Shown here piece by piece: positions 5,286 to 52,156 of a DNA stretch of 64,000 nt (position 1 is its first letter; the number at the start of each line of letters is the position of its first letter). The DNA is from Escherichia coli (lineage in GTDB: Bacteria > Pseudomonadota > Gammaproteobacteria > Enterobacterales > Enterobacteriaceae). The translations under genes were made by a program, and so were the position numbers. The notes beneath the pieces are model-generated. The model saw only the letters and a list, made by a program, of their open reading frames with translations. It did not search any database and was not told where the DNA came from. The DNA lies in NCBI RefSeq assembly GCF_029227855.1, contig NZ_CP074356.1; one strand, written 5' to 3'.

Positions 5286-5378
5286 ATGACAATAGAAAAA
5301 CACGAAAGAAGCACTAAGGATTTGGTGAAAGCAGCAGTATCGGGATGGCTGGGCACTGCGCTTGAATTTATGGATTTC
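5286..5378 (+). pseudogene. ydfJ: 5' fragment (31 codons) of MFS transporter gene ydfJ, separated from the rest of the gene by the prophage
   Basis: ATG 5286 encodes MTIEKHERSTKDLVKAAVSGWLGTALEFMDF, then diverges into phage sequence; the reading frame resumes exactly at 52148 (MDFQLYSLGAALVF...). Confidence 0.75.
5364..5378 (+). repeat. prophage attachment-site core, left copy (GAATTTATGGATTTC)
   Basis: Imperfect direct repeat with 52143-52156 (GAATTATGGATTTC) at the two junctions between ydfJ sequence and phage sequence. Confidence 0.6.
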
Positions 5379-5415
5379 AAGAGTCATACGTGTCAACTAT
5401 TTGATAAATATTAAA

Positions 5416-6696
5416 TTAATTTTTCATTGCTTCGTTATGGGGCATGGTTGGGGCAAACTCGCTTAACTGTGTATTTAACAAAGCTACCTGTGCATTATTG
5501 TTTTCAGACATCCATTTTCCGTATACCTGAAATACCATTTGCGCATCTGCATGGCCCATCTGGTTTGCTATAAATGCCGGGTTAGCACCAGCTGTCAGCG
5601 ACCAGCAGGCATAAGTATGTCTCGACTGATATGATTTTCGATGGCGGAGTCCGGCACGTTTTATCGCTGCGTCCCACATCTGCCTTATTGAGTCAACGGT
5701 AAAATGGTCACCATAATTTTTTACTCTCGCTGACACTTCAGGTTGAAAAACAAAGGTGCATTTTTGTTTTTCTGTTCTGCCATACTCTCTGAGGTGAACA
5801 TCAATGATATGCTCTTTGCTCAGTCTCGTTAATGTCATCTGACTCCGGAGAGCGTCGATTGCTGGCTTAATAAGATGAATGACCCGATTGGTTCCCGCCT
5901 GTGTTTTTGGTACCGTGAAACGGTCTTTTGCTAAATTTCTCCTGATCATCATTGTTCCATTTTTCAGATCTATGTCCTCCCATCCAAGTGCACACAGCTC
6001 ACCAGGGCGAACGCCAGTATAAACAGAAACACACCATAAATTTTTTGCTTGCTGATTTCTGCACGCATCGATAAGACGGATAAATTCCTCCCGCGAAAGA
6101 GGATCCGGAATGGTTCTTGATTCCTTTAATGGCGAGATCCCCTTAAACGGATTATCTGGCAGGTAACCGTTATCAACACCAAACTGGAACACGGCGTTAA
6201 GATTTGTCATGTAATTATTTACAGTTACAGCCGATCTCCCTGGTTGTGTAACAATATAGTTACTTTTGGGGATCTGGTATCCAGTCAGTAGCTCTTTACG
6301 AACCTCCAGTAATTTTTCTTTATTAATCGATGAGGCAAGATTTTTTTCACCGATTATGCTCAGGATATTTTTGATGACGGCACGGTATGTGTTGAGTGAT
6401 GTTTTGGCGACTTCAGTTTCTTTCAGTGCCAGAAATTTTTCAGCCAGTTCTTTTATGGTTAAATCTTGTCGGGCCTCACCAAATTTTTCCAGATTGCGTG
6501 AGGAGGGAAACTGTTTTGCATAGTCGAAAACACCAGTTTTTATTGCGTAACAAACAGAGGCGCGTAGTTCACCTGCAACGCGCCTGTTTTTTGCTGTGTC
6601 AGGAACCCCCAGATTTTCCCTGACTCTTACGCCTTTATAAACAAACCAGATACGTAATTTCCCTCCATGGTTTTCCACGCCTGTCGGATATTTCAT
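5416..6696 (-). CDS. int: phage integrase (tyrosine recombinase)
   Basis: ORF 5416-6711; start at ATG 6696 with SD gagagg (MKYPTGVENHGGKLRIWF...); C-terminal catalytic region with RHTYA and terminal Tyr-containing motif. Confidence 0.9.
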   Translation of the reverse strand: MKYPTGVENHGGKLRIWFVYKGVRVRENLGVPDTAKNRRVAGELRASVCYAIKTGVFDYAKQFPSSRNLEKFGEARQDLTIKELAEKFLALKETEVAKTSLNTYRAVIKNILSIIGEKNLASSINKEKLLEVRKELLTGYQIPKSNYIVTQPGRSAVTVNNYMTNLNAVFQFGVDNGYLPDNPFKGISPLKESRTIPDPLSREEFIRLIDACRNQQAKNLWCVSVYTGVRPGELCALGWEDIDLKNGTMMIRRNLAKDRFTVPKTQAGTNRVIHLIKPAIDALRSQMTLTRLSKEHIIDVHLREYGRTEKQKCTFVFQPEVSARVKNYGDHFTVDSIRQMWDAAIKRAGLRHRKSYQSRHTYACWSLTAGANPAFIANQMGHADAQMVFQVYGKWMSENNNAQVALLNTQLSEFAPTMPHNEAMKN

Positions 6697-6730
6697 TTCA
6701 ACCTCTCTCATTAGTTAGTGTGGCTTTTAG

Positions 6731-6982
6731 TCAAGTAAGATGACGTCTTGGTCTCGCTGATGCCTGGCGCTCAATCCAGCGATCAATTTCTTCCAGGTTG
6801 TAAAAGCATGGACTGTTATCCCATGGCATACCGTCATGAGCGACATGCTTATATTCCCTTCCTTCCATAAACGATTTTTCCCGGGCCTTTTTTAACGTAC
6901 CTTTTTTTATTCCTTTCAGCGCAATTAACTGCTCTTCGGATACCCATTTGCCGGGAGAGACAATCATGATTACTTCGCTCAT
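6731..6982 (-). CDS. putative excisionase
   Basis: 83-aa ORF immediately upstream of int on the same strand; family assignment not verified. Confidence 0.55.
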   Translation of the reverse strand: MSEVIMIVSPGKWVSEEQLIALKGIKKGTLKKAREKSFMEGREYKHVAHDGMPWDNSPCFYNLEEIDRWIERQASARPRRHLT

Positions 6983-7054
6983 CGATTTCTTTATCTCTTA
7001 CATCAGACGAGCGCCGGTTGCAGAATACCAGTCACAACCGGCGACAGTTGAACA

Positions 7055-50125: not shown

Positions 50126-50222
50126 GGTAAAACATATAAATTCTATAATTAGATGTATCTTTCCATTTACGGCAAGGAAGGGGGCTTGGAAGACGTAAGG
50201 CATCTCACACCGAGATTATTTT

Positions 50223-50813
50223 TTATATGTCAGGTGTCTGAAGTTTTGCTTTGGCTCTTAAAATGGTTTGCCGCGAGGTTTTGAATTCCCGGGCAATGGC
50301 ACTTATACTTACACCTGACTTAATCCGTTCGAATACCACCTGTTTCTGTTCTTCATTTAACACAGGTGGTCGACCAAAACGTTTCCCTGCGCCCCGGGCT
50401 CTTACTATCCCGGAATGAGTGCGTTCAAGTAAAAGGTCTCGTTCAAATTCAGCGACTGCTGAAATTACTTGCATCATCATTTTTCCTGTTGGACTGGTCA
50501 GGTCAATGCCCCCCAATGCTAAGCAATGCACTCTGATACCTGTTTCGGTCAGTTGTTCCACTGTTTTCCTGATATCCATTGCATTACAACCAAGGCGATC
50601 CAGTTTTGTCACAATCAATTGATCACCACATTTCAGGCGAGCAAGCAACCGGTTAAAACCAGGACGCTCACTGGTTGCTGCTGAGCCGCTAATGTGTTCT
50701 TCGATTATTTGCTGAGGTTTGATTTTAAAACCTGCACTTTCGATTTCCCGGCGTTGATTTTCGGTGGTCTGATCCAGCGTTGATATCCGACAGTAAGCAA
50801 AAATTCGAGACAT
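50223..50813 (-). CDS. pin: Pin-type serine DNA invertase
   Basis: 196-aa product [29 protein letters not shown]... with catalytic Ser motif and C-terminal HTH. Confidence 0.9.
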
Positions 50814-51129
50814 AGTGAGACTCTATACGAAATTGGTGTTCATATCATAATGCATCTCAGAAAATAATTTTGATTATTTTTTTGCATGTTTGTATGTACA
50901 CGTTCGAAAATAAACGAATGCGTATGCAACCCCGTAATTTTGGTGAGACCCAAAATCGATTTTGTGAAAAATGGCTTTAACTCGGTTTGTTTTTCGAGTT
51001 CCGGGCGGACTCAAGGAAGAAGAATAGTGTTGCGTGTTATTTTAACCAGATTTCAAGTTGTTTGGTCGTGGAAAAGTGGAGCAAAATGTTGTTAAAGTGG
51101 AAAAATGATAAAAAAGTAAGTTTATTATA

Positions 51130-51363
51130 TTACATTTTACCATTTAAATTTTGGTTGTCTTTAAGAACTGATATCGCTGTTTGTAATAATTCTTTGTTAT
51201 CCAGCCATGATTTGTTCTTTATGTTTCCTTCAATGTAATCAAGCAATGTTCTGGTATTGATAGGTCTTCCCTGTTTTGCTACTTCCACTACAGCATCCCC
51301 TAGGATAATTCTGACTTCAGGAAGCTGCGCAGGGAACCACTTTAGGGTGTCTTTTGATTTCAT
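51130..51363 (-). CDS. ydfK: prophage protein YdfK/YnaE family
   Basis: 77-aa product MKSKDTLKWFPAQLPEVRIILGDAVVEVAKQGRPINTRTLLDYIEGNIKNKSWLDNK... matches remembered YdfK. Confidence 0.8.
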   Translation of the reverse strand: MKSKDTLKWFPAQLPEVRIILGDAVVEVAKQGRPINTRTLLDYIEGNIKNKSWLDNKELLQTAISVLKDNQNLNGKM

Positions 51364-52142
51364 GAATATATTCCTTAAAATATTATTGATTTTCATTGCG
51401 ATATTGTATGTCTGATTCAGGATATGTTGACTTATACATCGGTTTTGTCTGGGTTATTGGATATGCCAATCCCTAATTTTATTAGAGCATGACTAAAAAT
51501 GCTGAATATGATAAGGAGCGAAGTGATTATCAGTATGCTGTTCATATAGCCTCGAATTAGTAATGTGTTATATATGATATAGTTGACAATTTTTATCCTG
51601 GGTGTTCTTAAAGTTCGTAGATAAACATTGTCGTTTCAGGTATACAGGAATGCTAACAGATGGCGGCAAAAATCAGGCGGTTTATGGCGCAAGCTGAAGT
51701 GGCAACTGCAAACTATCTTATGCAGAGACTCTACACGGATTGGGTTTAAAAGTATACATAGATAACAGTTTTTATCTGAAGAAGAAAAATATCAAGGTGA
51801 TATAGCCTATATGCCTTTGATGCGGAGGAATGAATGTGATGGGAGTGATGTATCTGAATAGTTGAAAAACCGCAGACACGCCTTATGCAAGAACGTGCTG
51901 CGGTTGGCTGGTAAATTTTTCGATAGTGCGAGTATTGAATGATTTCCAGCCGTTATTGATTTTACGCGTAACTCCATGAAAAAACTACTTATCTGTTGAG
52001 GAGTTTTTTGGGGCATATATGGGACAGAAATAGGCCCCAGATAGACACTGAGATCGAACTTAGGATGCTTTTTAAAAAATGCAACTATCTGAAAAAACCT
52101 AGAAAACGCCAAGGAAACCACAGGATGGGAAAAAACACCTGT

Positions 52143-52156
52143 GAATTATGGATTTC
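52143..52156 (+). repeat. prophage attachment-site core, right copy (GAATTATGGATTTC)
   Basis: Direct repeat of 5364-5378 with a 1-nt difference; ydfJ reading frame resumes here. Confidence 0.6.

Follow-up and report, generated by a model that had tools for sequence, protein, structure and literature searches.

The window, a stretch of 64,000 nucleotides of Escherichia coli DNA (contig NZ_CP074356.1), contains a prophage within ydfJ, a gene for an MFS transporter. The inserted element occupies 5379–52156 (46,778 bp). The host gene is broken after codon 31, such that its 5′ remnant runs into phage DNA, reading ...LEFMDF and then KSHTCQLFDKY before a stop codon. The boundaries are marked by the following features.

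5286–5378, plus strand: 31-codon 5′ remnant of ydfJ, the counterpart of which is called ynfP in the K-12 annotation
5363–5378, plus strand: attL core TGAATTTATGGATTTC, host TTT form
52142–52156, plus strand: attR core TGAATTATGGATTTC, phage TT form
52148–53431, plus strand: 3′ part of ydfJ, a 427-aa ORF (MDFQLYS...) whose ATG lies inside the att core

Splicing 5286–5378 to 52157–53431 in silico yields 1368 nt in a single frame encoding 455 aa, the length of intact YdfJ, as expected from the initial annotation's proposal that joining the two pieces restores one reading frame. The rejoined gene equals the annotated intact ydfJ of strain ST2747 in length and differs from it by 14 nt and 2 aa. Among 5426 complete E. 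coli genomes, 2007 match an empty site rebuilt from both flanks (rspB-ydfJ) as a single unbroken stretch, and ydfJ is annotated as intact at the empty site in uninterrupted references. These references, which could have contradicted the claim that a prophage splits ydfJ, place the break exactly at the junction described here. K-12 and five further complete assemblies, all independent, have the same junctions. The 3′ part of ydfJ is called a pseudogene by PGAP and a CDS in the K-12 annotation.

Both junctions share the sequence TGAATT(T)ATGGATTTC, with an additional T in the left copy. A junction repeat with this extra T had been described from the start, and we extend it by one more common 5′ T; the shared segment measures 15/16 bp rather than the 14–15 bp originally given. 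The accompanying description of the core as imperfect is accurate in that the one-base difference is real, but this is a standing difference between attB (TGAATTTATGGATTTCC) and attP (TGAATTATGGATTTCA) that lies outside the exchanged segment, and not damage. The longer T run is the host form and the shorter run is the phage form. At the opposite end of the core, the base is the phage A in attL and the host C in attR. Because attL thus combines host TTT with phage A, and attR phage TT with host C, strand exchange most likely occurred within (TT)ATGGATTTC, the stretch on which both sites agree, rightward of the T indel. The crossover in ydfJ is thereby placed within 11 bp or fewer, where the exact cleavage points presumably lie.

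The attP site predicted by joining the right and left ends of the element (a 1600-bp probe) is contiguous, at 98.6–99.8% identity, in phages Tritos (prophage 3 of AIEC strain LF82, OV696610.1), HannyBb (PP925841.1), PhiR42_1 (PV340562.1) and mEp460_ev081 (LR597641.1), and its core and flanks are base-identical in the last three. Chance is an unrealistic explanation, since the empty site exists in 2007 genomes and the predicted attP is contiguous in four phages. For comparison, Nakamura et al. 2021 (PMC8112680) describe lambda-like “PPydfJ” prophages in the same gene with an att of 18 or 19 bp, defined by alignment of attP, attL, attR and attB. That one-base length difference is consistent with TGAATT(T)ATGGATTTC[A/C]AG here, and the two sequences are presumably identical.

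In the mechanism we propose, the phage’s own tyrosine integrase would have inserted the genome at the known attB, codons 26–31 of ydfJ, and Int together with Xis would excise it, restoring the 455-aa gene precisely. While integrated, the prophage would part the ydfJ promoter and the first 28–31 codons from the remaining gene, and YdfJ function is presumably lost in the lysogen. We considered phage-driven re-expression of the 427-aa YdfJ and dropped it for want of a promoter candidate in the prophage end; a scan of the plus strand over the final 750 bp of the prophage found no sigma-70-like site.

Gene content and phage relatives

Between the two att cores, the element carries the following genes and features.

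5416–6696, minus strand: tyrosine integrase of 426 aa, which shares 99.8% identity with Tritos Int and is matched by tyrosine recombinase models
6731–6982, minus strand: excisionase, 83 aa, 100% identical to Tritos Xis
7055–9526, minus strand: full-length Exonuclease VIII-like protein of 823 aa, of which K-12 has just the ydfE remnant
9620–10222, minus strand: ydfD, dicB and DicF sRNA (10171–10222), the division-inhibition part of the leftward operon
11384–11791, minus strand: DicA-type repressor, 135 aa, short, HTH only
11872–12604, plus strand: Cro/DicC-like regulator (11872–12099) and CII-like/YdaT protein (12083–12604)
12585–14022, plus strand: O-like replication initiator (321 aa) and Ren-like DUF977 protein
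14346–17132, plus strand: candidate defence cluster of the ABC-three-component (ABC-3C) type, four genes in low-GC DNA
17409–17733, plus strand: sok RNA and hokD toxin gene
18548–19992, plus strand: ydfU (DUF968) and Q antiterminator (19615–19992, 125 aa)
20148–22944, strand unassigned for the interval: three accessory genes between Q and lysis, for a lipocalin (minus strand), a YbgA-family protein and an HTH protein
23136–25340, plus strand: lysis cassette of holin S, YdfR-like protein, endolysin R (24044–24577), Rz (24876–25340) and embedded Rz1 (25096–25278)
26219–26230, plus strand: probable cos end GGGCGGGAGCGT, corresponding to base 1 of the linear Tritos genome
26415–33417, plus strand: head genes (small and large terminase, adaptor, portal, ClpP-protease/major-capsid fusion, head completion), full length relative to Tritos
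33429–44848, plus strand: tail genes arranged as in lambda, homologues of Z, U, V, G, T, H, M, L, K, I and J
44916–45515, plus strand: Lom/Ail-family outer-membrane protein
45572–46273, plus strand: IS200C, about 702 bp, with tnpA (45661–46170) and the IS200 5′-UTR RNA STnc490 (45579–45702)
46293–49995, plus strand: side tail fibre gene (stf), followed by three fibre-associated ORFs, with architecture as in Tritos and HannyBb
50223–51545, minus strand: Pin-type serine invertase (50223–50813), ydfK (51130–51363) and ynfT (51432–51545)

The int stop codon lies 37 bp from the att core. A divergent repressor/Cro pair, the replication initiator and Q follow in lambda order, as judged from PGAP names and PHROG matches (phrog_409, phrog_163, phrog_391 and phrog_79). 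The replication proteins were identified by PHROGs but not by NCBIfam, a search of which with the replication and cargo proteins gave no matches. A PHROG match was likewise obtained for the CII-like protein. Rfam matches were obtained for DicF and sok. The repressor, which presumably holds the prophage silent, is encoded by a gene whose best matches are a dicA/dicC record (89%) and K-12 (84–87%), with no close match among sequenced free phages.

All 18 Tritos structural proteins from TerS to J align at full length with no stops, J being covered over residues 1–1133 of 1137. Likewise, neither S (71 aa) nor R (177 aa) is shortened relative to Tritos, Rz matches phrog_13 over residues 1–154 of 154, and Rz1 matches phrog_3198. 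With Int, Xis, repressor/Cro, the O-like initiator and Q also present, the initial description of full head, tail, lysis and immunity modules is upheld.

Tritos, which forms plaques and is a siphovirus by electron microscopy (PMC9928086), shares attP, Int and Xis with the element, and matches it at 97.4% identity over a 17.7-kb segment that runs from cos as far as the N-terminal part of J. The end carrying the tail-fibre, pin and ydfK genes is the same too. The two differ in immunity (CI is 30% identical), replication protein, Q, Rz and cargo, and Tritos lacks IS200C. In mEp460_ev081, HannyBb and PhiR42_1 it is the Cro/CII-like/O-like/DUF977 block that is 95–98% identical to the element, and the O-like/DUF977 gene pair is of the same size. 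HannyBb and mEp460_ev081 have the head and tail genes in common with it as well, whereas PhiR42_1 has lambda-type head genes. All three differ from the element in repressor allele, hotspot cargo, Q-to-lysis region and tail-fibre tips.

The overall order is that of lambda (int-xis-recombination, immunity, replication, Q, lysis, cos, head, tail, lom and stf), with Int and Xis at a short core. Lambda differs in its attB (gal-bio, rather than ydfJ) and in head type, which here is a protease-capsid fusion. A short DicA-type repressor is found here, a single O-like protein replaces O plus P, and a RecE-like gene takes the place of exo/bet. The PPydfJ prophages, as described in PMC8112680, carry T3SS effector genes (nleC, nleG) and are often clustered; no such effector genes were noticed in the element.

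The element very likely represents the genome of a single lambdoid temperate siphovirus, of the mEp460_ev081/Tritos/HannyBb type, inserted at ydfJ as a full-length counterpart of K-12 Qin.

Recent spread, decay and alternative readings

IS200C occupies the gap between lom and stf and ends about 19 bp before the stf start codon. Its assignment to IS200/IS605 is supported by a match to NF033573 (2.6e-43, above the cut-off) and by the Rfam match to STnc490 (144.6 bits). The closest relatives are without it, and the near-identical prophages of strains 2D and WP2-W18-ESBL-08 are also free of IS200C, but in 151 genomes RefSeq has an IS200C annotation at this lom-stf position. This insertion is the sole visible lesion of the prophage, and it may be polar on the side-tail-fibre genes. 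The side tail fibres of lambda are dispensable. By analogy, stf would be dispensable for plaque formation here.

To judge how recently the phage moved, BLAST-based counts of differing sites in six lysogens can be compared between prophage and chromosome. The first 27 kb of the prophage differ at 2–23 sites, whereas the adjacent 5.4 kb of chromosome differ at 38–98 sites across four backgrounds. Near-identical prophage copies therefore reside in at least four chromosomal backgrounds whose flanks are 10–100 times more diverged, which indicates recent spread. In the comparison with strain 19A14, the closest genome, divergence begins 135 bp outside attL and 192 bp outside attR, and the flanks differ from the window by about 1%. 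The 19A14 copy lacks IS200C, and its tail gene I is frameshifted, with a C5 run in place of the C6 run here, where the gpI gene (40667–41308) is intact. Thus, decay does occur in this lineage.

Such decay lends some weight to a tentative alternative, less probable than a functional phage, in which the prophage is cryptic and only looks complete: correctly integrated at ydfJ, producing no infectious particles and at an early stage on the way toward Qin. The cause could be the IS200C insertion close to stf, a silent point mutation or a non-inducible repressor. Besides the frameshifted sister copy in 19A14, this alternative draws on the absence of the repressor allele from sequenced free phages, and on the occupation of ydfJ in most E. 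coli genomes, many of the occupants being degraded, as K-12 Qin is. Nonetheless, the head, tail, lysis, replication and recombination genes are all full length relative to plaque-forming relatives, the fibre genes next to IS200C are of the kind that lambda can do without, and the low divergence of the prophage relative to its flanks in four host backgrounds requires recent transfer. We therefore favor a phage that was probably infectious very recently and that may still be inducible.

A tandem or composite of two or more prophages is very improbable. PMC8112680 reports clusters of two to four prophages at ydfJ in O157:H7 strains, but the element has one integrase gene and one set of each module, and no further core copy was found inside it. 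Moreover, its length minus IS200C is about 46.1 kb, matching single phage genomes of 45.3–46.4 kb, and its late region aligns collinearly with Tritos as a single 17.7-kb block. We reject this reading because 5379–52156 holds no second att core, integrase or terminase set. A natural split of ydfJ, or an assembly artefact mimicking a junction, can be dismissed with near certainty: no point in its support was found, and it is refuted by the empty-site matches, the intact ydfJ references, the identical junctions in K-12 and five more independent assemblies, and the reciprocal attP in phage genomes.

Comparison with Qin and accessory cargo

The MG1655 annotation places “cryptic prophage Qin” at 1632277–1652745, between the 427-aa ydfJ and ynfP/rspB. 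Together with the identical att cores, this confirms the initial statement that the defective Qin of K-12 occupies this position. Qin and the element share insertion point, orientation and both attL and attR cores, including the TTT/TT difference, and only two SNPs separate them in the phage DNA adjoining the cores. Eight collinear blocks of 84–98% identity are common to both: int (of which a part is left in K-12), exonuclease/ydfE, dicB-DicF-ydfD, dicA/dicC (84–87%), hokD-rem-ydfU (94%), essQ, rrrQ and pinQ-ydfK-ynfT (98%). However, Qin is 20.5 kb long, has an int cut by IS2 and lacks head and tail genes, whereas the 46.8-kb element retains all modules and an intact int. The Q and Rz types differ as well, and so does the cargo, which consists of relBE-flxA and csp genes in Qin and of the ABC-3C cluster, the lipocalin and YbgA here. 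The element is a relative of Qin and not a copy of the cryptic element, the defective traits of Qin being absent from it.

The ABC-3C cluster occupies a position that varies among relatives. Two relatives examined at this slot, which lies between the DUF977/ren-like gene and sok/hokD, encode a dCTP deaminase or a Sll1717-type ATPase there. AIPR, DUF262, FRG and DUF4209 proteins are named in the annotations of other relatives, without placement in the slot. A defence role for the cluster is suggested by annotation names, since the sole PADLOC match among the cargo was the DUF2326 protein (candidate family PDC-M68B). Our literature search found nothing specific on ABC-3C in prophages or on a lambdoid defence hotspot near hokD. 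We regard as evenly poised the proposal that a circulating, infectious “live Qin” uses the DUF977-sok/hokD slot as a swap site for anti-phage cargo.

According to PMC8112680, the ydfJ locus is occupied in many strains, K-12 included. With the site, the 18/19-bp att and plaque-forming relatives already published, the finding is correct but ordinary, and its importance beyond correct annotation is slight. In that annotation, ydfJ would best be recorded as interrupted by an excisable prophage and not as a mutational pseudogene, and the prophage should be treated as potentially inducible. Besides the candidate ABC-3C defence system, it brings along hok/sok and the division inhibitors DicF and DicB. 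The element shows what the ancestor of K-12 Qin looked like, and if the slot does exchange anti-phage genes in an infectious phage, ydfJ prophages would offer both a tractable model of Qin decay in K-12 and a hunting ground for new defence systems.

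Interruption of ydfJ and the site of strand exchange

Genes in the window are ordered rspA-rspB, ydfJ codons 1-31 (5286-5378), 46,778 bp of other DNA, a 427-aa ORF (52148-53431) and ydfI. Splicing 5286-5378 to 52157-53431 yields 1368 nt encoding 455 aa in a single frame, equal in length to the intact ydfJ annotated in strain ST2747 and differing from it by 14 nucleotides and two amino acids. In a search of every complete E. coli genome (5426), a 1200-bp empty-site probe made from both flanks matches one uninterrupted stretch in 2007, and there the annotation gives an intact ydfJ, an MFS transporter of the MHS family. 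In most of the others the two probe halves are found separately, the median being two places per genome. Thus, the prophage splits ydfJ as the initial annotation had claimed, and the junction is exact against genomes with intact ydfJ, the comparison it had named as a possible refutation.

Public annotation of the two ydfJ remnants is inconsistent between records. The 5' piece (window 5286-5411) is protein YnfP in the K-12 record, and the 3' piece (52148-53431) is a 427-aa “putative transporter YdfJ” in K-12 and a pseudogene according to PGAP in 19A14, a strain with a near-identical prophage. A search of the final 750 bp of the prophage gave no promoter-like site directed into the 3' piece.

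Attachment sites
attB: GCGCTTGAATTTATGGATTTCCAGTTAT
attL: GCGCTTGAATTTATGGATTTCAAGAGTC
attR: ACCTGTGAATT-ATGGATTTCCAGTTAT

The stretch common to both junctions is TGAATT(T)ATGGATTTC, 16 bp on the left and 15 bp on the right. An imperfect repeat with one extra base had been described correctly, but its length had been put at 14-15 bp, one base too short. A putative attP probe, made by fusing the element's last 800 bp to its first 800 bp, is contiguous in four genomes of the phage collection searched, those of Tritos, HannyBb, PhiR42_1 and mEp460_ev081 (98.6-99.8% identity, 100% of the probe aligned). The core in the last three is CACCTGTGAATTATGGATTTCAAGAGTCAT, exactly the left half of attR and the right half of attL, and therefore TT belongs to the phage and TTT to the host. 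The core's “imperfection” is thus a pre-existing mismatch of attP with attB, not damage after integration.

TTT is retained in attL and TT in attR, and at the opposite end of the core attL carries the A of the phage and attR the C of the host. Given this distribution, strand exchange must have taken place within (TT)ATGGATTTC, a segment of 9-11 bp. Tyrosine recombinases typically use an overlap of 6-8 bp, for which, by analogy with the known mechanism of the family, this segment would be roomy enough. No further core copy is present anywhere in the window, which rules out a tandem prophage cluster and leaves one element.

Gene content and relatives

The modules below are named from the RefSeq annotation of the 19A14 prophage, and the two RNAs from Rfam.

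Prophage modules
Early left: integrase, excisionase, 823-aa exonuclease, ydfD, dicB
10171-10222: DicF
Immunity and replication: HTH repressor, Cro, YdaT/CII-like protein, 321-aa protein, DUF977 protein
17409-17583: sok
Middle: hokD, rem, ydfU, Q
Lysis: holin, lysozyme, Rz
Head: small and large terminase, portal, ClpP-protease/capsid fusion
Tail: lambda-order series up to J, then Lom, tail fibres, Pin

By its PHROGs match (1.4e-91) the 321-aa protein is an O-like initiator, and PHROGs also supports the CII-like protein, Q, Rz (residues 1-154 of 154) and Rz1. Of 45 translated Tritos genes aligned to the window, the 18 for structural proteins, TerS through J, are all full length without a stop, mostly at 95-100% identity, with the J alignment reaching to within four residues of its end. 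Int is 99.8% and Xis 100% identical to those of Tritos, and the exonuclease is full length. These homologues, together with the PHROGs matches to Q, Rz and Rz1, uphold the earlier description of a complete-looking prophage. Base 1 of the linear Tritos genome falls at window 26219 (GGGCGGGAGCGT...), the likely cos end by this alignment. PGAP flags a partial ydfB and a tfa remnant; both lie in segments that the sequenced relatives also have, at 96-99% identity, and do not indicate decay.

Strain LF82 spontaneously produces Tritos; the phage was isolated from a plaque on a derivative of MG1655, and imaging showed it to be a siphovirus (PMC9928086). The replication blocks of mEp460_ev081, HannyBb and PhiR42_1 are 95-98% identical to that of the element. 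Its repressor allele has no close match among sequenced free phages; its closest counterparts are in a dicA/dicC record (89%) and in K-12 (84-87%).

The initial annotation had placed Qin at this position in K-12, and indeed MG1655 is annotated with “cryptic prophage Qin” at 1632277-1652745, flanked by the 427-aa ydfJ on one side and by ynfP (the ydfJ 5' remnant) and rspB on the other. The attL and attR cores of Qin match those of the element base for base, TTT/TT included, and the two have eight collinear blocks in common. The element is a full-length relative of Qin.

Blocks common to Qin and the element, with identity
Left flank and part of int: 98%
Exonuclease/ydfE through dicB and DicF: 95%
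Around dicA/dicC (two blocks): 84-87%
hokD-rem-ydfU: 94%
essQ: 87%
rrrQ: 94%
pinQ-ydfK-ynfT-ydfJ and right flank: 98%

Variable regions and neighbouring host DNA

The slot from the DUF977/ren-like gene to sok/hokD appears to be a site where cargo is swapped. The window has four genes of an ABC-three-component cluster there, whose DUF2326 protein matches the PADLOC candidate PDC-M68B (1e-41); strain SJC33 has an anti-phage dCTP deaminase, and isolate F247 an Sll1717-type P-loop ATPase. In two relatives the slot lies at L009 8890-10527 and L010 8953-10440. K-12 Qin instead has relBE-ydfV-flxA between equivalent flanking genes. Other relatives have AIPR, DUF262, FRG and DUF4209 proteins somewhere in their annotation. 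GC content is low (0.35-0.38) across window 14100-17400.

Between Q and holin (20148-22944) are three accessory genes, encoding a lipocalin-family protein (opposite strand), a YbgA-family protein and a 237-aa HTH protein (phrog_1450, function unknown); stx occupies the same location in Stx phages. The lysis region (23356-26187) is mosaic, with about 340 bp between the YdfR-like gene and R and an antisense 90-aa ORF at 23666-23938. Lambda-type Rz/Rz1 lie at 24876-25340, where close relatives and Qin have a DUF2514 rzpQ and a cspI-ynfN-gnsB cluster.

A 702-bp insert (45572-46273), absent from all close relatives, encodes a transposase of the IS200 family (NF033573, 2.6e-43).

Features of the IS200C insert
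45579-45702: STnc490, IS200 5'-UTR RNA (Rfam)
45661-46170: tnpA of IS200C

IS200C ends about 19 bp short of the stf start codon and might have a polar effect on the side tail fibre; lambda makes plaques without this fibre. The lom-IS200C-stf arrangement is annotated in 151 other complete genomes, CFT073 among them. Tail-assembly gene I (40667-41308) is intact in the window, with C6 at 41118-41123, versus C5 and a PGAP-annotated frameshift in 19A14. The C5 tract could be a homopolymer sequencing error, or it could be a real inactivating slip.

Outside the prophage, 61011-61224 strongly matches the Hfq-binding sRNA STnc560 in Rfam (281 bits), downstream of ORF 60103-60999 (dgcZ, mapped from the 19A14 annotation). 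K-12 homology ends just beyond dcp, at about 59220-59460; in the dcp-ydeI interval 19A14 has only a fragment annotated “2-oxo-tetronate isomerase”, and K-12 has ydeJ.

Recent spread and standing of the element

The first 21.6 kb of the prophage are present at at least 99.9% identity in five complete genomes. Among six lysogens, the window included, the first 27 kb differ at 2-23 sites, versus 38-98 sites in the adjoining 5.4 kb of chromosome, which represents four distinct backgrounds. Relative to 19A14, divergence is 8.9 and 13.1 sites per kb in the two flanks (about 1%) and 0.05-0.2 sites per kb in the prophage from attL to lom. The nearest flank differences are 135 bp outside attL and 192 bp outside attR, such that the low-divergence boundary coincides with the att sites. 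Because the prophage is far less diverged than its flanks, it entered these lineages long after they split. Repeated site-specific lysogenisation would predict such a pattern.

Nakamura et al. 2021 (PMC8112680) name lambda-like phages at ydfJ PPydfJ, report attP determined by PCR and define an “18- or 19-bp att sequence” from attP, attL, attR and attB alignments; compared by length alone, its one-base difference fits the T indel in the window. That work, the annotation of K-12 and the genomes of four related phages together establish site, mechanism and phage type, and the element is almost certainly a single lambdoid phage inserted site-specifically. We lean towards a phage still able to make infectious particles, for whose recent infectivity low divergence bounded by att sites is the best available argument. 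The initial observation is accurate and well made, but both the type of element and its insertion site were known before.
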